Source of the DNA: Candidatus Pelearchaeum maunauluense
Lineage (GTDB): Archaea > Thermoproteota > Nitrososphaeria_A > Caldarchaeales > Caldarchaeaceae
Assembly (NCBI GenBank): GCA_030059675.1
Contig: JANVYQ010000002.1
Coordinates: forward strand, 18,260 to 82,259
Direction of reading: 5' to 3'
Length of the DNA stretch: 64,000 bases
Part shown: piece after piece, positions 36,101-49,290 of the stretch
Layout: each line of letters begins with the position of its first letter
Numbering within the stretch: position 1 is the stretch's first letter
Position numbers and translations under genes: made by a program
Notes under the pieces: model-generated
The model's database searches: none
What the model saw: only the letters and a program-made list of their open reading frames with translations
What the model was told of the DNA's origin: nothing

Positions 36101-38749
36101 ATGACACAAGTCGCAGCCTACTCTTTCGTTGATAAGCCGTTTAGCGACGAGGAGAGTCTAGCGGCGCTAGAGAGCTACGTACGCGAGTGGTTTATGAGAA
36201 CCTTCAAGGAGCTTACGCCACCGCAGCGCTACTCGTTCAAGCTGATAGCTGACGGTCATAACGTTATAATCACAGCGCCGACTGGAAGTGGGAAAACCCT
36301 GGCTGGCTTCATGAGTATATTGAGCAAGCTCTTTAAGATGGGTGAGCAGCGCCAGCTCACCGAGAGCGTTTATTGCATCTACGTAAGCCCTCTCAAAGCA
36401 CTGGATAATGATGTAAAGAAGAACTTGATGCAGCCGCTTATAGAGATACGCGAGATAGCTGCGGAGATGGGGATAGAGCTGCCTGAGATAAAGATAGCAG
36501 TCAGGACGAGTGATGTAGCTGGCTCGGAGAAGCAGCGCCAGCTAAAGGAGCCACCCCACATCCTGATAACCACGCCAGAGAGTCTAGCAATCCTCCTCAA
36601 CGCCCCCAAGTTCGCGGAGAAGCTGCGTACTGTGCAGTGGGTAATCGTTGACGAGATACACGAGCTAGCTGGCAGTAAAAGGGGCGCTCACCTCTCGCTA
36701 AGCCTTGAGCGACTGCGGGAAGCAGTAGGAAAGGACTTCATACGCATAGGGCTGGGCGCCACACTACACCCGCTTGAAGAGGCCGCGCGCTTCCTAGTAG
36801 GCTACGACGACACAGGAAGACCAAGACCATGCAAGATAGTCGATGTAACATGGTATAAGCCGCTCCAACTGATGGTAAAAACACCTGTCAAGGATATTGT
36901 CCACGCATCGGCGGATGAGATTAACGAAGCCCTCTACAGACTCCTGGATAAGCTGATAACAAAACACAGGACGACGCTCATCTTCACCAACACCCGCTCA
37001 GGAACTGAGAGGGTCGTCTATAACTTGAAGGAGAGGTGGCCTGATAAGTATAATGACTCAACGATAGGCGCTCATCATGGCTCGCTCTCGCGCGAGATTA
37101 GGCTAGATATTGAGGATAGGCTGAAGCGGGGCGAGCTTAAGGCTGTTGTCTGCTCCACATCCCTTGAGCTGGGTATTGATGTGGGCTACATAGACCTGGT
37201 TGTTCAGGTAGGCTCGCCCAAGAGCATAACTAGGGCTGTTCAACGCATAGGGAGAAGCGGCCACCGCTTCGGCGACACCGCACGCGGCGTGATAATAGCG
37301 ATGGATAGAGACGACATAGTAGAGTGCGCAGTCATGCTAAAATGCGCACTAGAGAGGAGGCTGGACGAGATAAAAATACCAACAAACTGCCTAGATGTCC
37401 TGGCACAACATATAGTCGGCATGGCGCTCACACGCAAATGGAGCGTTGACGAAGCGTTCAGGCTGGTACGCCGCTCATACAACTACCGCTACCTAGACAA
37501 AGAAACCTTCATCAGCCTCCTCAAATACCTAGCAGGACATTATGCCGAGCTTGAGGATAGAAGCGTCTATGGAAAGATATGGTTTGACGAGAAAAACATG
37601 ATGTTCGGTAAACGAGGAAAATACACCAGAATAATATACTACCTAAACATAGGGACAATCCCCGACGAGGTTAAGGTTGATGTCTATCTCCTGCCAGATA
37701 AGCGCTACATAGGCTCCATAGAGGAAGAATTCTTAGAGCGTCTAAGGCCTGGAGACATCTTCGTCCTAGGCGGCAGGATGTATAGGTTCAGATATGCACG
37801 GAGCATGAGCTGCTATGTTGAGAAGCCACCCAAGGATAGCCTCCCGACAATACCCGCGTGGTTCTCCGAGCTACTCCCACTAAGCTTCGAGCTGGCGCTG
37901 GAGATACAGGACTTTAGGGAGGAGTTCAAAGCGACGCTACAGGCTGGGAAGACGAAGAAGGAGATAGTGGCGTGGCTTCTCAGAAGATTCCCAATAGAGA
38001 GACACACAGCCGAGGCAATATACAACTATTACAGGGAGCACTACAGATACACGGGTGGCAAGCTACCTGGACGCGATGAGATTCTAATAGAGACTACCTC
38101 AGACCTTCAGGAAAGGCGTTTCATAGTCTTCCACGCCCTCTATGGGCGGAGAGTTAACGACGCCCTCTCTCGCGCGGCAGCCATACTCACGTCAGACCAG
38201 ATAGGCAGGAACGTGGGGGTTATAGTAAGCGATAACGGCTTTGCCCTACACATACCGCAGGACGCTAGGGTTGACGTGGAGAGACTCCTTAGAGAACTAG
38301 CTTCATGCGACTTGGAAGAGCTGCTTAAGCGAAACATACGGAGAACGGAGATGATGAAGAGAAGATTTAGACACTGTGCAGCGCGTAGCTTCCTCATACT
38401 CCGAAACTACAAAGGATACAAGATAAGCGTAAGCAAGCAGCAGACAAACGCCCAGACCTTGCTCAATGTATGCGAAGAGGTCAATCCGAACTTTCCCGTT
38501 ATTGTGGAAACCTATCGCGAGATACTGCGGGACGTGATGGACTTGGAGAGGGCGAAGCTTGTCCAGGAATGGCTCAGGACAGGCAGGGTGAAGAGCATGC
38601 TAATCAAGACCGAGGTCCCCACACCCTTAGCGCATAACCTTATAGTCCTGGGAGACGCCGACATAGTGTTGATGGAGGATCGTAAGAAGAGGCTCCTCCA
38701 GCTGCATGAGGCTGTGATGAGGAAGATTAGGCTTGCGGCACGCTCTTAA
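36101..38749 (+). CDS. Lhr-family large ATP-dependent helicase (superfamily 2)
   Basis: 882 aa. Walker A ITAPTGSGKTLAGF, DEIHEL motif II, an HGSLS..R motif VI region, and a long winged-helix/domain-4 tail typical of the Lhr core. Confidence 0.85.
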   Translation: MTQVAAYSFVDKPFSDEESLAALESYVREWFMRTFKELTPPQRYSFKLIADGHNVIITAPTGSGKTLAGFMSILSKLFKMGEQRQLTESVYCIYVSPLKALDNDVKKNLMQPLIEIREIAAEMGIELPEIKIAVRTSDVAGSEKQRQLKEPPHILITTPESLAILLNAPKFAEKLRTVQWVIVDEIHELAGSKRGAHLSLSLERLREAVGKDFIRIGLGATLHPLEEAARFLVGYDDTGRPRPCKIVDVTWYKPLQLMVKTPVKDIVHASADEINEALYRLLDKLITKHRTTLIFTNTRSGTERVVYNLKERWPDKYNDSTIGAHHGSLSREIRLDIEDRLKRGELKAVVCSTSLELGIDVGYIDLVVQVGSPKSITRAVQRIGRSGHRFGDTARGVIIAMDRDDIVECAVMLKCALERRLDEIKIPTNCLDVLAQHIVGMALTRKWSVDEAFRLVRRSYNYRYLDKETFISLLKYLAGHYAELEDRSVYGKIWFDEKNMMFGKRGKYTRIIYYLNIGTIPDEVKVDVYLLPDKRYIGSIEEEFLERLRPGDIFVLGGRMYRFRYARSMSCYVEKPPKDSLPTIPAWFSELLPLSFELALEIQDFREEFKATLQAGKTKKEIVAWLLRRFPIERHTAEAIYNYYREHYRYTGGKLPGRDEILIETTSDLQERRFIVFHALYGRRVNDALSRAAAILTSDQIGRNVGVIVSDNGFALHIPQDARVDVERLLRELASCDLEELLKRNIRRTEMMKRRFRHCAARSFLILRNYKGYKISVSKQQTNAQTLLNVCEEVNPNFPVIVETYREILRDVMDLERAKLVQEWLRTGRVKSMLIKTEVPTPLAHNLIVLGDADIVLMEDRKKRLLQLHEAVMRKIRLAARS

Positions 38750-39506
38750 TAGTCTCACGATAATGGGCGTGGTGGAGCTGGTCGCGCCCTATCCAGCGAT
38801 ATACATACCAGAGATAGACACTCTAGCAATATCAGACCTACACCTCGGCTACGAGGGGGTTATGGCCGAGGAGGCTGGGCTAATGATACCGAAGACACAG
38901 TTCAAGAAGGAGATGCAGGCTCTCAGGGAGATTGAGAAGCGCGTCAAGGCAAGGAGGATAGTATTGAACGGCGACATAAAGCATGAGTTCTCCTCAACAA
39001 GCTACCACGAGTCAAGGGAGGTGTCGGACATGCTTGAGCATCTCCAGCAGGAGTATGAGGAGGTTATAATTGTTAAGGGGAACCATGATAACTTCATAGC
39101 AAGAATAACCTCGCGATACAGGGTTAAGCTGGTTGAGGAGTTTCTTGATGGCAGGTATTATTTTGTTCATGGCCATGAAATACCTGAAGGGTTCGCCTTA
39201 AAGGGCGAGGTTGTGGTAATAGGGCATGAGCATCCAGCAATAGCGTTATATGATGATGTGGGAGCTAAGGAGAAGATACCCTGCATACTCTATGGGGATA
39301 TGCTTGACGGTAGGAAGATAATAGTCCTGCCAGCCTTCTCCATACTTGCGCAGGGGAGTGAGGTGAATATGATACCCCGCGAGGAGCTTCTCTCACCAAT
39401 ACTCAGACAATACGTGGATGTGGATTCGCTAAACGTGATGAGCGTAGGCCCAGATGTTGGGTGCATCTCCTTTCCGAAACTCGGCCTGCTACGCGGCGTA
39501 CACTGA
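38733..39506 (+). CDS. metallophosphoesterase (MPE) partnered with Lhr
   Basis: Calcineurin-like motifs DLHLG, GDIKHEF, GNHD and GHEH. Overlaps the Lhr stop in the known Lhr-MPE operon arrangement. Confidence 0.8.
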   Translation: MRHALNSLTIMGVVELVAPYPAIYIPEIDTLAISDLHLGYEGVMAEEAGLMIPKTQFKKEMQALREIEKRVKARRIVLNGDIKHEFSSTSYHESREVSDMLEHLQQEYEEVIIVKGNHDNFIARITSRYRVKLVEEFLDGRYYFVHGHEIPEGFALKGEVVVIGHEHPAIALYDDVGAKEKIPCILYGDMLDGRKIIVLPAFSILAQGSEVNMIPREELLSPILRQYVDVDSLNVMSVGPDVGCISFPKLGLLRGVH

Positions 39507-39903: not shown

Positions 39904-40424
39904 ATGTTTGAGCTGGTCTTCTACGGCAGGGGAGGACAGGGGTTGTTACTGCCTCTAGGCTCTTGGCTGAAGCTGCCCTGATTGAGGGGAAGTATATCCA
40001 GGCCTTCCCAGAGTTTGGGCCTGAACGCTCAGGCTCGCCAGTCAAGTCTTATGTAAGGATATCCGACCCCATGATAGAGACCCATTCGCTCATCTACAGC
40101 CCAGATATACTAACCGTGATAGACCGTAGGATAGCTTCCTCCCCTAATGTATTCTCGCTCTGCAAGGAGGGTGGTCTTGTGGTGCTTAACTCTGTGGAGG
40201 TGAGGAGTAAGCCGCGTCATGTTAGGTTGGCTCGTGTTGATGCCCGCGGAATAGCGGGCTCGCTGGGAAGTCTTAAGCTGGAGAACACGGCAACCTTGGG
40301 AGCCCTGGCAAGAGCTTCTCGTATAGTAGAGTTGGCAGCCTGGCTAAGGCGTTGGAAAGTAGGTTCGGTGGTGAGGTGCTTGAGAAGAACCTCAAAGCGC
40401 TACATGAAGGCTTTAGGGAGGTGA
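39904..40424 (+). CDS. porG: pyruvate/2-oxoacid:ferredoxin oxidoreductase gamma subunit, interrupted by a -1 frameshift in a GGGG run
   Basis: ATG 39904 encodes MFELVFYGRGGQG and then runs into a stop. The conserved continuation VVTASRLLAEAALIEGKYIQAFPEFGPERSGSPV... is in the -1 frame (ORF 39963..40424). The frames join at cagggg, 39937..39942. Confidence 0.75.
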
Positions 40425-40430
40425 TTATGG

Positions 40431-40727
40431 ATGAGCAGAGCTGAATTAGGTGAAATCCTGCCAGGAGGGGCTATAGCGGAGCCAGGCTCAACCGCCGAGT
40501 TCAAGACAGCAGACTGGAGAAGCAGCAAGCCAGTCTTGATGGATTTGGAGAAATGCACAGGCTGCCCGCTGTGTTGGATATTCTGCCCAGAGCCCGCTAT
40601 AGTTAGGAGAGCAGATGGGAAGATTGAGTTTGACTACTATCACTGTAAGGGCTGCGGCATCTGCGCCGCGGAGTGTCCCCTGAAATTGATTGTTATGGTG
40701 GAGGAGGCTGGTGACGGGGATGGCTAA
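40431..40727 (+). CDS. porD: pyruvate:ferredoxin oxidoreductase delta subunit (2x[4Fe-4S] ferredoxin-like)
   Basis: Two CxxCxxCxxxCP motifs (CTGCPLCWIFCP, CKGCGICAAECP). 98 aa. Confidence 0.85.
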   Translation: MSRAELGEILPGGAIAEPGSTAEFKTADWRSSKPVLMDLEKCTGCPLCWIFCPEPAIVRRADGKIEFDYYHCKGCGICAAECPLKLIVMVEEAGDGDG

Positions 40728-41889
40728 GGCTCTCTCAGGCTCCGAGGCTGTTGCGCTGGCTGTGAAGCAGGCTAACGTGGATGTGGTGGCAGCATACCCG
40801 ATAACGCCGCAGACAATAATAGTAGAACGCCTCGCAGAATACATAAATAACGGCGAGCTGGACGCAGAGTACGTACCCGTAGAGTCGGAGCACTCAGCAC
40901 TCTCAGAATGCGCGGCAGCCAGCATGACTGGAGCAAGGGTATTCACGGCAACGGCAAGCCAGGGACTAGCCCTAATGCATGACATGATGTACATAGCCGC
41001 TGGTCTTAGATGTCCTGTTGTAATGGCTGTAGCGAATAGGGCGTTGTCCGCGCCAATCAACATACACCGCGACCACTCTGATATTATGGGCTCACGCGAC
41101 TCTGGTTGGGTTCAGATATTCGTGGAGAATAATCAGCAGGCCTATGACATGACGCTGGAAGCGTTTAAGCTCGCTGAGGACCATGATATTCTCCTTCCCG
41201 TGACCGTCAATATGGATGGGTTCTTCGTATCCCACGCCGTTGAGGGTGTGGAGACGCTGGACGACTCTAGGGCGGCTGGCTTCCTACCTCCTAGAAAGCC
41301 GCTCCACTACCTAGACGCATCTAAACCCATGTCATTCGGAGCGCTGGCATCTCCAGAATGGTACTACAGGATTAGGCATCAAGTGGTGGAGGCGATGGCG
41401 AGAGTTGAGCAGAAGCTGGAAGAGGTTGAGCGGGAGTATCTGCGTGTGTCTAGAAGGAGCTACGGCGCCCTGGGCTTAAGCCAGGTTGAGAATGCGGAGA
41501 TTGTGATACTGTGTGCGGGTGCTGTTGCTGGTACTGCGCGCACAGCTGCTAGACGGCTGAGGGAGAGAGGCGTGAAGGTTGGCGTAGTGAGCGTGAGGCT
41601 CTACAGGCCATTCCCAGCAGAAAAGATAATCCACGCTATATCCAACGCTGAAGCCCTCTTAGTCATAGACCTAGCCATGAGCCCAGGCGCCCCATCGGCA
41701 CCGCTTGGACAGGATATTAAAGCGGCGCTCTTTGACGCTGGCGTTAGGCTGCCCGTATGGAATGTGGTCTGCGGGCTAGGGGGGAGAGATGTCTCCGAGG
41801 CTGAGATAGAGAAGCTCGCGACAACCCTCGCAGAAAGCACCACAAGCACACCGCGCGAGAGGATAACATACTGGGGTGTAGCTGTATGA
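40690..41889 (+). CDS. porA: pyruvate:ferredoxin oxidoreductase alpha subunit
   Basis: 399 aa. N-terminus GSEAVALAVKQANVDVVAAYPITPQT is typical of PorA. Confidence 0.85.
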   Translation: MLWWRRLVTGMAKALSGSEAVALAVKQANVDVVAAYPITPQTIIVERLAEYINNGELDAEYVPVESEHSALSECAAASMTGARVFTATASQGLALMHDMMYIAAGLRCPVVMAVANRALSAPINIHRDHSDIMGSRDSGWVQIFVENNQQAYDMTLEAFKLAEDHDILLPVTVNMDGFFVSHAVEGVETLDDSRAAGFLPPRKPLHYLDASKPMSFGALASPEWYYRIRHQVVEAMARVEQKLEEVEREYLRVSRRSYGALGLSQVENAEIVILCAGAVAGTARTAARRLRERGVKVGVVSVRLYRPFPAEKIIHAISNAEALLVIDLAMSPGAPSAPLGQDIKAALFDAGVRLPVWNVVCGLGGRDVSEAEIEKLATTLAESTTSTPRERITYWGVAV

Positions 41890-42856
41890 CTGTAGTTAAA
41901 GAGATAGTCTCCGCGAGAGACCTGTATGGAGAGGAGCTTGTGGCACCATGCACATCCTTCGACTACGAGGACTACGAGGTCATAGTAGTGGACGACTCAA
42001 ACGACGAGACGACCAGGAAGCTAGAAGCTTGGAGAGACCATCCCAAGGTTAAGATCATACATAGGAGTTGTAGAGAGAGCTGGAAGGGCACGACTTGAAT
42101 GCAGACGAGAACTGGATAACTAAGGCAACTAACATACTCTTCGCAACAACATACAAAGTCGAGCTAGAGGCGCGGAGTAGACTGAGGCTATTCATACCTT
42201 TGCTGGGAAGCGTATTCATGGTAAGGACAAATATACTGAAGGACTTGAAGTTTGAACATGACATAACAGAGAACTACAACCTCTCGGTGAGGATGTATCT
42301 AAACGGCTATAAAATAGTCTATGACTCGGCCATAGACGCGTCTGGAGAATGTCCATCAAGGCTACATAGGGTTGCTAGACAGGTTGCGAGATGGGCTGAG
42401 GGGACAACGAGGAACTTCAGGAAATATTTCTGGAAGGTGATGAGAAGTAACAAGCTTACCATGAGGGAGAAAGCCGAGTTCATGTTATCGGGGCTCTCAT
42501 ACCTCTCCGCTACCCTACTAGTCTTCGCAGTAATAGGTGGAGTAGTTGTGACGGCCATGATAGATTATGTTCTATCACAGCCACTAACTTACATAAGCGT
42601 CATGCTAGCAACGCTGGGCTTGCCAGCAACCATGATAATGCAAAGCATAGCAATAGCCAAGGAGGGAGAAATCAGAAGACTTACTTGGATACCATACGCT
42701 CTAATACTAGGATACCTAATAGCACCAGTATCGGCATACTACGCTCTAAAGGGACTAATAAGCAACAACGGAGAATTCCACAGAACATACAAGACAGGAC
42801 ACCTAGTAAACCGTAAATCAGCTGAGATAAGGACCTATTTAGAATACCCAAAATGA
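41886..42856 (+). pseudogene. family-2 glycosyltransferase (processive, QxxRW type) split into two ORFs with an internal deletion
   Basis: ORF 41886..42098 has the GT-A start (YEVIVVDDSNDET) and ends after ~70 aa. ORF 42095..42856 resumes at a DAD-like motif and carries QVARW (QxxRW) plus C-terminal TM helices. About 80 aa of the catalytic domain are missing between them. Confidence 0.6.
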
Positions 42857-42931
42857 TAAATAAAGCCATCAGCCATTATAAGTTGCTTCCGTCATGAAGT
42901 CAAAATCCGGCATTTATCAGGTGTAGCCTCC

Positions 42932-43768
42932 ATGGGCGAAGAGGTTACGAAGGCTTACGCAGTAAAGGTCGTCGGCAGGGTGCAGAGGGTTGGCTATAGA
43001 CGCCTCATTCTTGAGGCCGCTCAAGAGCTCGGCTTGGCTGGCTACGTTAAGAACGAGAGAGATGGATCGGTCACGGTCTTCGTTCAAGGCAGTGAGGAGA
43101 ACATAGCGAGATTCCTCAAGTTGATAAAGTCTCCTCCACCGCCTGCCGTAGTCAAGACATTTACGGAGAAGCTAACCAAGCCTAAGCCCCAGCTCAAAGC
43201 CTTCACGATAAAGTTCGGCACAATACAGGAGGAGTTACAGGAGGGCTTTGGCGCCATGCAGAGTATCTTCATGGACTACTGGGGGGAGTTCAGGGATTAC
43301 AGACAAGAGTTCAGAGACTTCAGGCAGGAGTTCAGGGGATTCCTGTCTGACTTCAGCGACTACAGACAGGAATTTAGGGACTTCAGGCAGGAGTTCAGGG
43401 ATTACAGACAAGAGTTCAGAGACTTCAGGCAGGAGTTCAGGGGATTCCTGTCTGACTTCAGCGACTACAGACAGGAATTTAGGGACTTCAGGCAGGAGTT
43501 CAAAGACTTTAGAGAGGAGCTCAGGGATTATAGGCAGGAATTCAAAAGCTTTGCATCGGAGTTTAGAGATTACAGGGAGGAGTTCAGGGAGTTCGCAAAA
43601 AGGACGAACGAGAACTTTAAGCTAATCCTCGAGAAATACGGCGAGATCTCCGATAAGCTAACAGTTATCCTAGACACGCTAGTGAAGGAGTCGAAGGAGA
43701 CTAGGGATAGGCTCGCCGAAGCAATACAGCTACTAAGACAAGCAATAGATAAGATCACTAAGGAATAG
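42932..43768 (+). CDS. acylphosphatase-like domain fused to a Phe-rich heptad-repeat (xFRQEFR) coiled-coil region
   Basis: N-terminus VVGRVQRVGYRRLILEAAQELGLAGYVKNERDGSVTVFVQG matches the acylphosphatase signature. It is followed by ~16 heptads DYRQEFR/DFRQEFR and contains a perfect 2x105-nt tandem duplication (43286..43390 and 43391..43495). Confidence 0.7.
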   Translation: MGEEVTKAYAVKVVGRVQRVGYRRLILEAAQELGLAGYVKNERDGSVTVFVQGSEENIARFLKLIKSPPPPAVVKTFTEKLTKPKPQLKAFTIKFGTIQEELQEGFGAMQSIFMDYWGEFRDYRQEFRDFRQEFRGFLSDFSDYRQEFRDFRQEFRDYRQEFRDFRQEFRGFLSDFSDYRQEFRDFRQEFKDFREELRDYRQEFKSFASEFRDYREEFREFAKRTNENFKLILEKYGEISDKLTVILDTLVKESKETRDRLAEAIQLLRQAIDKITKE

Positions 43769-44099
43769 ACTTATAATGGTACCAATGCAAAAGACCATTA
43801 ACCAATTCTTCAAAAACCACGATAATACATTCTATTATTCCTCAATATTCGGCACGGCCTTGACGTTGCGCTTAATCCCAGAGCTTAAAATTTATCCATT
43901 CCCCATAGGCTATGAAACTATAACGTACTATGCTCCTTTCTTGCAGCACGGCCCGACGAATTTTCAATCCATATTTTGGGATACATTACATACTGAAGGC
44001 CGAGGTGGTCTTAGGGTTCAGCGATTTCTCAGCACTCAAAGTGAGCGCGCCCCTCCTCAGACTTCCTCCTAAGCGATTCTTCCCAGTCTTTATTGGTTT

Positions 44100-44322
44100 T
44101 AACTGGCTCTCCAGTAATGAGGAGATACGAAGATACATTCTACAGGTGCTGGTCAATCCTGATCAAGTCCATTATGATGTTGAGAGAGGTGATGTAAGAT
44201 ATTTCCTGCGTAAGGTTAATGATAGGTTTCTCTGCGTAATAACTGTGGCCACGGAAGCTGTGACCGCATACCTTATGCGCGAGCGCAAGTACTGTAGATA
44301 TAAGGAGAGACGATGGCGCTGA
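44100..44322 (+). CDS. possible DUF4258-like (RelE/ParE-superfamily) small protein; start uncertain
   Basis: The C-terminal part of ORF 43930..44322 (VHYDVERGDVRYFLRKVNDRFLCVITVATEAVTAYLMRE) resembles the DUF4258 pattern that is also seen at 60874..61152. Confidence 0.3.
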
Positions 44323-44492
44323 CGATATTCAGCGAGGCCGAGAAGGTCAAGGAGCTGGTAGAGAGGCTGGAGGAGCAGAAGAAGGAGCTCGAGGAGAAGG
44401 AGAGAAGGCTTGAAGAGGAGAAGTTCCTGGAGATGGCCAGGGCCTTGGAGAGGATGCAGAAGGAGATAGACAGGCTGGCCAGGGGCGGTTGA
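44313..44492 (+). CDS. small charged coiled-coil protein (59 aa)
   Basis: Manual translation gives MALTIFSEAEKVKELVERLEEQKKELEEKERRLEEEKFLEMARALERMQKEIDRLARGG. Its ATG overlaps the preceding stop (ATGGCGCTGA). Confidence 0.4.
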   Translation: MALTIFSEAEKVKELVERLEEQKKELEEKERRLEEEKFLEMARALERMQKEIDRLARGG

Positions 44493-45250: not shown

Positions 45251-45736
45251 TTGGAAGCGATCATGGTTACGTTGCCTGAGAGGGTTTTGAGGGAGCTGAG
45301 TAAGAAAGCTGAGTCCGAGGGTGGAACTTTGGAGGAGATCCTTAATGAAGCTGTTCTCAACTACTGCGACGTTAGGGATCCTGAGGTTAGGGCTGAGAGC
45401 CACTTAAAGCTTTCCGAGAAGTATCTCAGGGAGTGTGAGGAATTCTTAGCGAGGGGGGATTATGCTCAGGCCTCCGAGAAGGCTTGGGGAGCGGCGTCTC
45501 AGATGGTGAAGGCGATTGCCGCGAGAAGGGGGATGGAGATAAGGAGCCACGGGGAGCTACATAGGTTTGTCAAAAGGCTTAGGGAGGAGTTCAGAGATGA
45601 ACAGGTCTCAACATTTTGGCTATCAGCGGTGTCGCTGCACCAGAACTTCTACGAAAACTGGCTGCCTGAGGATATGGTTAGAGACGGGGTAGAAAACGTT
45701 AAGAAGCTTGTTGAAAGATTAAAGAGGGTTATCTAA
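45251..45736 (+). CDS. RHH (CopG-like) domain fused to PaREP1-family (HEPN-like) domain protein, paralog 1
   Basis: N-terminal MVTLPERVLRELSKKAESEGGTLEEILNEAV is ribbon-helix-helix. C-terminal ...GDYAQASEKAWGAASQMVKAIAARRG...SLHQNFYE is the PaREP1 pattern shared by the five tandem paralogs. A TATA-like CTATATAGC lies upstream. Confidence 0.7.
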   Translation: MEAIMVTLPERVLRELSKKAESEGGTLEEILNEAVLNYCDVRDPEVRAESHLKLSEKYLRECEEFLARGDYAQASEKAWGAASQMVKAIAARRGMEIRSHGELHRFVKRLREEFRDEQVSTFWLSAVSLHQNFYENWLPEDMVRDGVENVKKLVERLKRVI

Positions 45737-46612: not shown

Positions 46613-46957
46613 GTGTGGAGAGGGTTGGGTAGGCTTTTAGAGAGAAACGTTAGGATTCTTGGCTTGTCTATGAAGCTGAAGCATTGGATAGCGGTGTTTA
46701 CGTTCCTAATTATAGGGATCTTGGGCTTCCTAACAGCTATACTGTTATCACCGCTCTTACTGGATTTGATAGGCGTAGCCATGGGGATAACGGGTATACT
46801 GCTCAGCTCCCTATCAGCTATATATGGGGCTACGAGCGCGCAGGTTGATACGTTTAGGCATGAATTTAGGGAGTTCAGGAGAGACGTGGTGGATGAGCTA
46901 AGAACGATTAGAATTACTCTAGACGAGGTGCTTAAAGTATTGAGAGGTGGCGGGTGA
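46613..46957 (+). CDS. small membrane protein with C-terminal FRHEFREFRR motif; truncated paralog at 46140..46330
   Basis: Two to three TM helices (LLDLIGVAMGITG) followed by DTFRHEFREFRRDVVDELR, which echoes the xFRQEFR repeats of the 42932 protein. The upstream fragment SIGVIIFIGLGVTIVSTILLMVMLTPMEIDLIMLLLGITGTF lacks an in-frame start codon. Confidence 0.5.
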   Translation: MWRGLGRLLERNVRILGLSMKLKHWIAVFTFLIIGILGFLTAILLSPLLLDLIGVAMGITGILLSSLSAIYGATSAQVDTFRHEFREFRRDVVDELRTIRITLDEVLKVLRGGG

Positions 46958-47024: not shown

Positions 47025-47513
47025 ATGTCTATTGTTCTGGAACTTCCTGATAGGCTATTGGTAAAGCTTAAGGAGTTATCGGATTCTAGGAATATTTCCT
47101 TAGAAGAGGCGATACTTGAGGCTATTTATGAATACGTTGAGGAGATGGATCCTGAGATGAGGTCGGAAATGTATCTTAAGCTATGCGAGAAATACCTTAG
47201 GGATGCTAAGGAGCTATTGTCTAAGGGAGACTATGTGCAGGCTGGTGAGAAGTTATGGGGCGCGGCCGCCCAGATAGTTAAGGCAGTAGCTGCTAGGCGG
47301 GGGATCGTGCTTGATAGCCACGCGAAGCTATGGGACTTCGTAGCCTCACTACGCGTTGAGCTGAACGACCCCGATATAGGCAGGCAATGGTCAGTAGCAA
47401 ACTCGCTGCATAAGAACTTTTACGAAGCTCAGGTCAGCCCTGAGTTAGTCAAGGACTACGCGGAAGACGTTAGAAAATTCGTAGATAAGCTGAAGCTATT
47501 AATAACGAAGTGA
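47025..47513 (+). CDS. RHH-PaREP1 family protein, paralog 2
   Basis: MSIVLELPDRLLVKLKELS... (RHH) followed by GDYVQAGEKLWGAAAQIVKAVAARRG...SLHKNFYE. Confidence 0.7.
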   Translation: MSIVLELPDRLLVKLKELSDSRNISLEEAILEAIYEYVEEMDPEMRSEMYLKLCEKYLRDAKELLSKGDYVQAGEKLWGAAAQIVKAVAARRGIVLDSHAKLWDFVASLRVELNDPDIGRQWSVANSLHKNFYEAQVSPELVKDYAEDVRKFVDKLKLLITK

Positions 47514-47630: not shown

Positions 47631-48138
47631 ATGCCGTCATTCTCCGTAAGTATTCCGGAGAATCTAGCTGAGGGACTTCGTAGCAGGGGCGTCGATATAG
47701 ACTCATATGTAGTTGAGTTAATAATCAGGGAACTGCGATTAGATCCGCGGTCTGAGGCCGAAGCACACCTAGAACTATCTAGACGCTTCTTAAGGGAGGC
47801 TAGCGATCTTCTCAATAGAGATTCCGTCCAAGCTAGCGAGAAGCTGCATAAAGCGGCTGAAGAAGCCGTGAAGGCCCTAGCAGTAGCAATGAGCTTACAG
47901 GACTGATAAACAAGGCTAGGCAAAGGGGTAGATGGACTGTAACGGAGCTTGAGAAGGCCGTCAGAGAGATTTCTAAGACCTTAGGTGAGGATTTTAGGAG
48001 GTGGTGGGATACAGCTTGGGCCCTCCACGTATGGGGTTTCCACGAAGCTAAGCTAGACTTAGAAGCCGTGAACAGCAGGCTAAAGGACATAGAGAATATA
48101 GTTAAGAGCGTGGAGGATTTCATAAGTAAACAAAAGTA
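47631..48138 (+). pseudogene. RHH-PaREP1 family paralog 3, frameshifted near 47905
   Basis: ORF 47631..47906 ends ...AVKALAVAMSLQD*. The family continuation ...WWDTAWALHVWGFHEAKLDLEAVNSRLKDIENIVKSVEDFISKQK is found in the next frame up to 48138. Confidence 0.6.
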
Positions 48139-48789: not shown

Positions 48790-49290
48790 ATGAGCATCAC
48801 CGTTCCTAAAGTAATAGTAGAGGAGCTGCGGAGAAGGGCGAAGAGAGCAGGAGCGTCAGTCGATGAATACCTGCTAGACCTTTTAACGAGGGACTCAGAC
48901 CCAGAGGAGGCTTGGAGAAAATACCTAGCAGGGGGCGGAGCAGCTCCTAGATCAGTCCGAGAAGAGCTGGGGAGGGGCGATCTCCGACAAGCGAGCGAGA
49001 AGCTATGGGGAGCGTGCGCGCTAGCGGTAAAAGCACATGCCCTAGCGAAGAAGGCAAAGAAAATAGAATCTCACGCAGAACTCTGGGAATACAAAGACCA
49101 GGTAGCCCAGGAGATAGGTGAGTGGATAAGGCCAGCGTTCAGGCAGGCAAGCCTAATGCACACAAACTTCTACGAAAACCAAGCAACGAAAAAGGACATA
49201 GAGGACGTGCTAAGAGAGGTCAAAAATCTAGTAGAGGCAATATCACAAAAACTGAAGCAGCGACAAACAAGCAATAACAAGCACGGCTAA
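48790..49290 (+). CDS. RHH-PaREP1 family protein, paralog 4
   Basis: MSITVPKVIVEELRRRAKRAGASVDEYLLDLL (RHH) followed by GDLRQASEKLWGACALAVKAHA...AFRQASLMHTNFYE, which contains an R-x5-H HEPN-like motif. Confidence 0.7.
   Translation: MSITVPKVIVEELRRRAKRAGASVDEYLLDLLTRDSDPEEAWRKYLAGGGAAPRSVREELGRGDLRQASEKLWGACALAVKAHALAKKAKKIESHAELWEYKDQVAQEIGEWIRPAFRQASLMHTNFYENQATKKDIEDVLREVKNLVEAISQKLKQRQTSNNKHG

Follow-up and report, generated by a model that had tools for sequence, protein, structure and literature searches.

Archaeal acylphosphatases (AcPs) of known structure, such as those from Sulfolobus (2BJD) and Pyrococcus horikoshii (1W2I), are stand-alone, single-domain enzymes of ~90–100 aa, and the AcP fold also serves as the N-terminal module of the larger protein HypF, which continues with zinc-finger, YrdC and Kae1-like domains. 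Repetitive stalks joined to a head are known from other proteins, among them the DUF3782 PD-(D/E)XK proteins, which have been described as coiled-coil stalk endonucleases (Hartmann et al., 2016; PMC4786415). Here we analyse a gene from a 64,000-nt stretch of DNA (hereafter the window) of Candidatus Pelearchaeum maunauluense, in which the open reading frame (ORF) 42932..43768 encodes a 278-aa protein. Its sequence and predicted structure place this protein in an uncharacterised, widely distributed archaeal family, in which an AcP-fold head with an altered phosphate loop sits on a length-hypervariable, aromatic-core helix. The translated ORF is 100% identical to an NCBI record named ‘MAG: acylphosphatase’ (MAG, metagenome-assembled genome) that is deposited under Ca. 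Pelearchaeum maunauluense, of the order Caldarchaeales (former Aigarchaeota) and phylum Nitrososphaerota. The Thermoproteales origin assumed in the first-pass annotation of this DNA is thus wrong, and can probably be traced to the PaREP1 genes lying downstream. Our literature search revealed no paper on an archaeal AcP fused to a coiled coil, nor was such a fusion mentioned in the paper on Caldarchaeales MAGs.

That the N-terminal domain has the AcP fold, as the first-pass annotation had proposed, was borne out by several lines of evidence. Residues 10–93 matched PF00708 (Acylphosphatase) with E = 8.3e-22 and 77.7 bits, against a cutoff of 22.5, and a sequence search of the PDB aligned the head with solved archaeal AcPs at E = 4e-12. 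AlphaFold2 (AF2), run on monomers with family alignments as input, modelled the head with a predicted local distance difference test score (pLDDT) of ~85–93, and the model showed the beta-alpha-beta-beta-alpha-beta, ferredoxin-like AcP topology. In Foldseek it superposed on the Sulfolobus enzyme (2BJD_A) with a root mean square deviation (rmsd) of 1.0 Å, a template modelling (TM) score of 0.95 and 36% identity; over the two stand-alone AcPs, rmsd was 1.0–1.1 Å for 90 residues at 34–37% identity. The head resembles these enzymes also in catalytic-domain length, in keeping Arg23 and Asn41 and in its intact second signature, but differs in being followed by a 180-residue helix, in having Arg in place of Gly19 and Tyr in place of Phe22, and in scoring below all NCBIfam equivalog cutoffs. 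The likeness to HypF is confined to the AcP-fold module, since TIGR00143 scored 42.9 bits against a cutoff of 466 and matched only over profile positions 1–82; no hydrogenase maturation genes were found near the window gene.

The two AcP signatures were examined with the patterns [LIV]-x-G-x-V-Q-G-V-x-[FM]-R and G-[FYW]-[AVC]-[KRQAM]-N-x3-G-x-V-x5-G, which we take to be PROSITE PS00150 and PS00151 respectively. The window protein had initially been credited with a canonical AcP signature, and this holds for the fold and for signature 2, which GYVKNERDGSVTVFVQG fits, but not for strict signature 1, which fails because of the Arg at Gly19 and the Tyr at Phe22 in its phosphate loop, VVGRVQRVGYR. 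The same departure recurs in the family, where the loop reads G-R-V-Q-R-V-G-[Y/F]-R-R and strict signature 1 is missing in 213 of 215 members: Arg occupies the canonical Gly19 position in 201 of these (93%), with Gly present only in a few distant members. The catalytic residues are kept, Asn being found in 211 of the 215 (N41 is invariant in an alignment of 57 sequences) and R23 being conserved in at least 90% of the aligned sequences. R19 is an extra, family-specific arginine in an arginine-enriched phosphate cradle comprising R16, R19, R23 and R24. As judged from its sequence, the head most likely still binds an acyl-phosphate or another terminal phosphate group, and probably hydrolyses it.

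Behind the head lie, counted from residue 115, 15 full heptads and a 16th, transitional one (EFAKRTN), in agreement with the ~16 heptads reported at first, with the consensus D-[Y/F]-R-Q-E-F-R. Position 2 is aromatic in 16 of 16 heptads (7 Tyr, 9 Phe) and position 6 in 14 of 16, making 30 of the 32 core positions aromatic. In coiled-coil register, a is Phe, d is Tyr or Phe, e and b are Arg, and g and c are Glu or Asp, so that the array has the uninterrupted heptads, hydrophobic a and d positions and predicted helicity of a coiled coil. This heptad pattern is far above chance: the motif [FYW][RK]x[ED][FYL][RK] occurs 14 times in the six frames of the 64-kb window, with 11 occurrences in this ORF, one in a small membrane protein (see below) and two elsewhere. 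Across 64 distinct family arrays, position 6 is Phe in 100% of heptads, position 5 Glu in 98% and position 7 Arg or Lys in 97%, while Asp accounts for 74% of position 1 and Arg for 68% of position 3. At position 2, Tyr (64%) prevails over Phe (34%), and so the earlier description of Phe at both core positions stands as regards an aromatic a/d core but not as regards a core of Phe only.

The structure prediction that had been suggested as a check returned a single long helix after the head: AF2 made residues 98–277 of the window protein one continuous helix (~180 residues, ~27 nm) without a hairpin. A helix of this length is not stable alone, which makes self-association the natural reading. 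At its two ends the array is bounded by conserved segments. The junction with the head (ELQEGFGAM) is invariant in the family alignment, with E101, E104, G105, F106 and G107 identical in all 57 sequences, and is kept in distant members too. The C-terminal module, for which the family sequence is RTDENFKxIxEKYGEISEKLTxILETLxKESKETRE, has an aliphatic core with one 4-4 spacing (a stutter) at its start; Y236 and S240 are invariant, G237 is present in at least 90% of sequences, and many other polar residues are near-invariant. This conservation of polar residues indicates a specific interaction surface and not a mere zipper. For both the N-terminal and the C-terminal part, a second subtype exists in some members (…LRKDLxTILDERLARMERDIAEIKARLGL at the C-terminus), and these subtypes pair with the same aromatic heptads. 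Instead of associating with other chains, the array and the aliphatic module might fold back on each other into an intramolecular antiparallel hairpin, or into a hairpin dimer with a four-helix bundle, giving a compact protein. They are indeed similar in length in the commonest members (51–58 aa for the array, ~60 aa for the module), the conserved RTDENF and KYGEIS motifs hold possible helix-capping or Gly break points, and AF2 confidence is low around the junction. Nonetheless, we consider this arrangement very unlikely, because the helix was unbroken in both AF2 runs, including that on a 205-aa homologue with seven heptads (helix 89–204, no fold-back), because the array varies from 0 to 16 heptads beside a constant C-terminal module, so that the two lengths cannot generally match, and because antiparallel pairing would set like charges together at e–e′ and g–g′.

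Continuous aromatic a/d cores are, to our knowledge, known mainly from designed peptides. When a profile of the stalk was compared with the PDB, the few matches included the engineered Phe-zipper variants of Lpp-56 2GUV (five chains) and 2GUS, with Phe in register; we take these designs to be five- and four-stranded parallel bundles respectively. They share with the window array an aromatic residue at every a and d over consecutive heptads, but are designed, Phe-only peptides of 56 residues, whereas the window array is natural and reaches 15–16 heptads, and in the family stalk some two thirds of the d positions are Tyr, with strict flanks of Arg and Glu. The resemblance, being one of core pattern, is an analogy and not homology. 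In the window protein, 11 of the 15 g(n)–e′(n+1) pairs are acid–base, which favours parallel, in-register association, since an antiparallel one would oppose E/E and R/R. The long helix would then pair, parallel and in register, with identical chains in a coiled coil having as its core a ladder of Phe (a) and Tyr/Phe (d), with Arg (e, b) on one flank and Glu/Asp (g, c) on the other. If the engineered all-Phe zippers are a guide, the bundle would probably be more than two-stranded, and it would gather several AcP heads together at one of its ends, with the conserved C-terminal modules lying at the opposite end.

Profile matches of the stalk also bear on another possible use of the long helix, namely that it is an amphipathic surface binder which, like GvpC, apolipoproteins or phasins, lies flat and brings the AcP head to a surface. 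The window protein has sub-threshold Pfam matches to Apolipoprotein and Halo_GVPC, two homologues, P0011 (34.8 bits) and P0101 (36.1 bits), score above the Halo_GVPC cutoff for whole proteins (22.4) without any single stretch passing, and apolipoprotein A-I is among the PDB matches of the stalk profile. What is shared with halobacterial GvpC (PF05465) is repetitive, acidic/basic, aromatic-containing helical repeats; their period, however, is 32–40 aa in GvpC and 7 here. A GvpC identity was rejected, given 18.2 bits for the window protein against the cutoff of 22.4 and no gvpA in the window or related loci. Surface binding of this kind appears improbable to us, since the hydrophobic face is two positions wide (a and d), as is typical of coiled coils and not of lipid-binding helices, the flanks are oppositely charged, unlike those of class-A amphipathic helices, and the apolipoprotein score was 23.7 against a cutoff of 90. 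Moreover, no gvpA-like sequence was detected in the window or in 88 related loci, and no gas-vesicle, polyhydroxyalkanoate or lipid-droplet genes among 148 flanking genes.

The architecture is far from being a lineage-specific repeat module, as which it was first described. A full-length search with the window protein yielded 901 protein clusters at E ≤ 1e-3, and a scan of one genome per GTDB species revealed at least 473 loci encoding a relative, in several archaeal classes; motif-bearing paralogs and orthologs, whose absence would have spoken against the initial description, are thus abundant. Hosts comprise Caldarchaeales, Nitrososphaerales, Nitrosocaldus, Geothermarchaeota, Wolframiiraptor, Bathyarchaeia, Brockarchaeota, Nezhaarchaeales and Korarchaeia-like MAGs, and some genomes hold two or three paralogs. 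The best 120 homologues (195–324 aa) cover 87–100% of the query at 39–64% identity. All relatives found come from MAGs or single-amplified genomes, one of them on a 2.06-Mb contig, and the named records are all annotated ‘acylphosphatase’ only.

Array length in this family varies widely and in whole heptads. Measured between the anchors EGFGAM and RTDENF, both of which were found in 109 of the best 120 homologues, it ranges from 51 to 114 aa and equals 2 mod 7 in 109 of 109; the longest arrays (114 aa) are those of the window protein and P0011, and more distant members have from none to ~16 heptads. Pairs of otherwise identical or near-identical proteins differ by indels of 14 aa (P0073/P0081, no mismatches; P0007/P0010, one mismatch) or 7 aa (P0086/P0097, one mismatch) inside the array, or by an indel of 35 aa (P0065/P0019, no mismatches), the unit size of the window duplication described below. 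Of 87 gene copies, 76 have detectable tandem repeats in their DNA, the usual periods being 21, 42 or 63 nt, and perfect multi-heptad duplications occur in independent assemblies (63 nt × 2.9 in L022; 42 nt × 2 in L070 and L076). Distant members keep head, junction and tail, whereas their aromatic heptads are gone or swapped for other repeats. In P0155, P0163, P0169, P0197, P0208 and P0248 other tandem repeats take the place of the aromatic heptads or are added to them, substitutes in distant members being 11-mers (RTDxNFKxLGx), heptads (VNEVKxS, GDxGGLR, IKEMKDD) and a 25-aa unit. The protein centre, as read across these sequences, is a general hotspot of repeat turnover. Since phase is kept while length and repeat type vary, the central region appears to act as a spacer that is constrained in nothing but its helical phase. 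The aromatic array would accordingly be a length-adjustable spacer between heads and C-terminal module, and would grow and shrink through slippage or unequal recombination between 21-nt units, in whole heptads only.

The window array itself contains an exact duplication. Direct string comparison confirmed the reported identity of 43286..43390 with 43391..43495 and extended perfect period-105 identity to 43285–43502, where Tandem Repeats Finder (TRF) reported a period-105 array with 100% matches and no indels, nested within a 21-nt periodic array at 43285..43594. The 105 nt that follow the perfect duplication are only 66% identical, and so represent an older, diverged copy. We propose that the duplication is one recent array-length event, which is biologically plausible because the array expands and contracts over short evolutionary time. 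It might also be a short-read assembly artefact, the true number of units, and hence the 16-heptad length, being one or some other number: the window comes from a MAG, the protein is found on a single contig as a cluster of one, and 218 nt of perfect periodicity exceed a typical short read, so that single reads do not allow a de Bruijn assembler to settle how many copies there are. This is rather unlikely, in our judgement, because in-frame differences of 7, 14 and 35 aa between otherwise identical alleles recur across independent data sets, other assemblies also contain perfect multi-heptad duplications, P0011 reaches the same array length, and the duplication preserves both reading frame and heptad phase.

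On balance, we favour, with modest confidence, a model in which a parallel, homo-oligomeric aromatic stalk clusters phosphate-binding AcP heads and acts as an adjustable spacer. Its fold, retained catalytic residues, heptad periodicity, predicted helix, phase-keeping length variation and breadth of distribution are observed, whereas oligomerisation, parallel orientation, strand number, enzymatic activity and cellular role are inferred. Several observations weigh against the model. As regards the stalk, pLDDT in the array is modest (54–84) in what is a monomer model only, the match to 2GUV is of marginal significance (E = 1.4e-3) and stems from composition, not from homology, and the Tyr hydroxyls at d, together with occasional G-F-L/V-x-x-F-S heptads, could alter packing relative to all-Phe designs. 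As regards the head, the best NCBIfam acylphosphatase equivalog score was 62.1 bits against a cutoff of 119, all 25 listed models being below cutoff, and G19R, which lies in the phosphate cradle, could leave the head inactive or alter its reaction. Nor did we find a conserved neighbour gene that would support a cellular role.

Six loci were inspected by hand, followed by the 148 immediate neighbours of 74 distinct loci, among which no Pfam family occurred more than five times, and the idea of a conserved operon partner was hence rejected. An association with glycosylation genes was rejected (2 of 148 each in this census), despite a family-2 glycosyltransferase (GT2) in the window and epimerases and GT2 in L006 and L088. 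Archease, of the archease/RtcB ligation pathway, offers one functional lead. Four different metagenomes encode full-length proteins in which archease is fused to the AcP head and aromatic stalk (66–78% identity; P0149 is L089). In Caldarchaeum, archease, a SPOUT RNA methyltransferase gene and the AcP-stalk gene follow one another on one strand (L021 and L074), and a second AcP-stalk paralog lies directly upstream of archease (L011). These fusions and this gene order hint at RNA end-processing. The family could then be an accessory of the archease/RtcB pathway, with the AcP-like cradle and its extra arginines reading a terminal RNA phosphate instead of hydrolysing metabolic acyl-phosphates, and the stalk joining the partner; the AcP fold shares its beta-alpha-beta-beta-alpha-beta topology with RRM domains. 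However, archease is near the gene in 5 of ~83 loci, all from one genus, there is none in the window, and in the fusion lineage archease has also been joined to a domain of glyoxalase type (L103, L111), so that the AcP–archease fusion may merely mirror gene order. A separate glyoxalase gene was observed just upstream of the fusion in L089. Given the one-genus synteny, the glyoxalase–archease fusions and the absence of RtcB next to any family member, the lead carries limited weight and we hold a role in this pathway to be unlikely. The boldest version is a new class of archaeal stalked phosphate readers, in which a natural, four- or five-stranded all-aromatic (Phe/Tyr) zipper of freely adjustable length would cluster AcP-like heads whose arginine-enriched cradle reads terminal RNA phosphate, not a metabolic acyl-phosphate, and which work with archease/RtcB in RNA ligation or repair, with the AcP-stalk-archease fusions as its covalent version; we regard this as very unlikely.

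Stalked nucleases are also encountered around some of these genes. DUF3782 stalks of PD-(D/E)XK endonucleases and DUF1640 membrane proteins resemble the AcP-stalk family in joining a head to a repetitive stalk of variable repeat number and in the heptad grammar x-F/L-K/R-x-E/D-M/F/V-K/R, but the stalked endonucleases carry a C-terminal nuclease and not an N-terminal AcP, and their core is a mix of Leu, Met and Phe (PMC4786415). No homology outside the repeats was shown, none of these families is represented in the window, and no PD-(D/E)XK nuclease domain was found in the window protein. DUF3782/PDDEXK_10 stalk proteins are encoded within 3.5 kb in ~11 of ~83 loci and immediately adjacent in three, and two of the adjoining ones match PADLOC model C3a181 (E = 1e-26 and 2e-10). 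We rejected them as partners: they were seen in three of the first six loci, but in only three immediately adjacent and ~11 nearby of ~83, are multi-copy in thermophiles, and there is no such gene in the window. Also rejected was a known defence system, for which PADLOC gave only weak coiled-coil matches to LmuB, JetC and ZorA, with E of 1e-4 or worse. The heptad grammar x-F-[K/R]-x-E-[M/F/V]-[K/R] is also common among stalk proteins of bacteria and archaea that are not related to the family. Among these are bacterial proteins of ~240–270 aa from Anaerolinea and Saprospiraceae MAGs (P0233, P0240, P0243, P0264, P0269 and others), in which long DFKDEMR arrays precede a conserved WGELANKMGT…ED motif and then a ~130-residue domain at the C-terminus; they have no Pfam match at E ≤ 1e-3, and the DVIA…E.K-type motif of that domain may, by its sequence, resemble those of PD-(D/E)XK nucleases. 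Two giant proteins, P0123 (7009 aa) and P0127 (1734 aa), were the top matches of the stalk profile (E = 3e-127) but are spurious and unrelated, matching because of the Phe/Tyr periodicity in their 14-aa repeats FGNVQxKFTDYDTS.

The window encodes a second protein with similar heptads, a small membrane protein that carries DTFRHEFREFRRD, ~2 heptads (DTFRHEFR-EFRRDVV) opening its cytoplasmic tail. The FR-EFR-EFR motif noted there earlier is therefore present but does not end the protein, since ~30 further residues follow, where the coiled coil is of the ordinary aliphatic kind. In a tblastn comparison within the window, the small protein resembled the array only weakly (E = 0.03). It has two homologues among 5.8 billion sequences, one of which, P0122 from a Thermoprotei MAG, bears four EFRxEMR-type heptads. 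The similar tail is thus real, but the idea of a module common to both proteins did not hold up, and, with two homologues as against a family of more than 900 clusters, the small protein was rejected as a general partner of AcP-stalk proteins and is probably outside the system.

In the window, the AcP-stalk gene sits between a split GT2 gene and small unknown ORFs with PaREP1 genes. The sequence of the 278-aa protein shows neither a signal peptide nor a membrane segment, and we propose it to be a cytoplasmic head-and-stalk protein. The GT2 gene consists of two overlapping ORFs in different frames of the forward strand, 41886..42098 (70 aa) and 42095..42856 (253 aa), matching the N-terminal and C-terminal parts of the GT2 model respectively, and would be a frameshifted pseudogene, a sequencing error or a programmed frameshift. 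Farther upstream on the same strand, 36101..39506 and 39963..41889 encode an Lhr-type helicase, then a calcineurin-like phosphoesterase, then 2-oxoacid:ferredoxin oxidoreductase subunits (gamma, delta with 2x[4Fe-4S], and alpha). In Geocrenenecus (L008) the homologous gene likewise has an Lhr helicase gene ~4.6 kb upstream, so some synteny is kept. Directly downstream, 43776..44492 (forward strand) holds three small overlapping or adjacent ORFs of 98, 130 and 59 aa, the last a charged, coiled-coil-like peptide, none of the three with a Pfam match. They are followed on the same strand by five PaREP1/PaREP8 (HEPN-like) paralogs (45251..45736, 47025..47513, 47631..47906, 48790..49290 and 49346..49831), several with a ribbon-helix-helix-like N-terminus and the third truncated.

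Table 1. Features of the AcP-stalk gene and its product in the window, and of related loci (prefix L, coordinates within each locus).
Feature	Location	Strand	Description
Complete AcP-head/coiled-coil-stalk protein	42932..43768	+	ORF of 278 aa; ATG start; stop codon 43766-43768
Candidate archaeal TATA-like box, cATTATAAG	42874..42882	+	~50 nt upstream of ATG; read from sequence
GGTG, possible ribosome-binding site	42920-42923	+	Read from sequence
Acylphosphatase-fold domain, aa 10-93	42959..43210	+	Pfam PF00708, PDB matches, AF2, Foldseek
Phosphate-binding loop VVGRVQRVGYRR, aa 13-24	42968..43003	+	Catalytic Arg23 present; canonical Gly19 replaced by Arg
Second AcP signature GYVKNERDGSVTVFVQG, aa 37-53	43040..43090	+	Pattern match; contains catalytic Asn41
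Family-hallmark junction EELQEGFGAMQSIFM, aa 100-114	43229..43273	+	Between head and stalk
Aromatic heptad array, 15 heptads, aa 115-219	43274..43588	+	Consensus D-[Y/F]-R-x-E-F-R; predicted helical
Perfect tandem duplication, 105-nt unit (35 aa, 5 heptads), 2.1 copies	43285..43502	+	TRF, string comparison
Conserved C-terminal helical module EFAKRTNENFKLILEKYGEISDKLTVILDTLVKESKETR..., aa 220-278 (59 aa)	43589..43765	+	Alignment, AF2, register reading
Small two-helix membrane protein	46613..46957	+	NCBI start 46670; heptads at 46847-46891
Stalk + PD-(D/E)XK proteins adjoining AcP-stalk gene	L001 8766-9395; L003 3346-4020; L008 6687-7382; L008 7724-8428	-; -; -; +	
AcP head + EELQEGFGAM junction + aromatic heptads + full archease fusions	L089 1098-2174; L090 2827-3942; L091 2813-3898; L092 480-1565		Number of heptads variable
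Glyoxalase/VOC-type N-terminal domain fused to archease	L103 735-1559; L104 2605-3429; L111 2593-3429		Same lineage as the AcP-stalk-archease fusions
Archease, Methyltrn_RNA_3 (SPOUT), AcP-stalk gene	L021 4534-6720; L074 4139-6426		One strand; Caldarchaeum
Second-subtype AcP-stalk paralog upstream of archease	L011 2076-4181		44 nt upstream; Caldarchaeum

An AcP head on a Phe/Tyr-core stalk is carried by a large part of the archaeal phylum Thermoproteota, including relatives of ammonia oxidisers, Bathyarchaeia and Caldarchaeales, where the ‘acylphosphatase’ label masks both the architecture and the altered phosphate loop and may mislead metabolic reconstruction of these uncultured archaea. The phase-preserving change in copy number between near-identical alleles constitutes a clean natural case of coiled-coil length evolution, and a natural Phe/Tyr zipper would deserve the notice of coiled-coil specialists. 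Should the stalk prove to be a higher-order aromatic zipper, it would provide a natural, very thermostable example of a design motif, and one that comes with a natural length series of 0 to 16 heptads.

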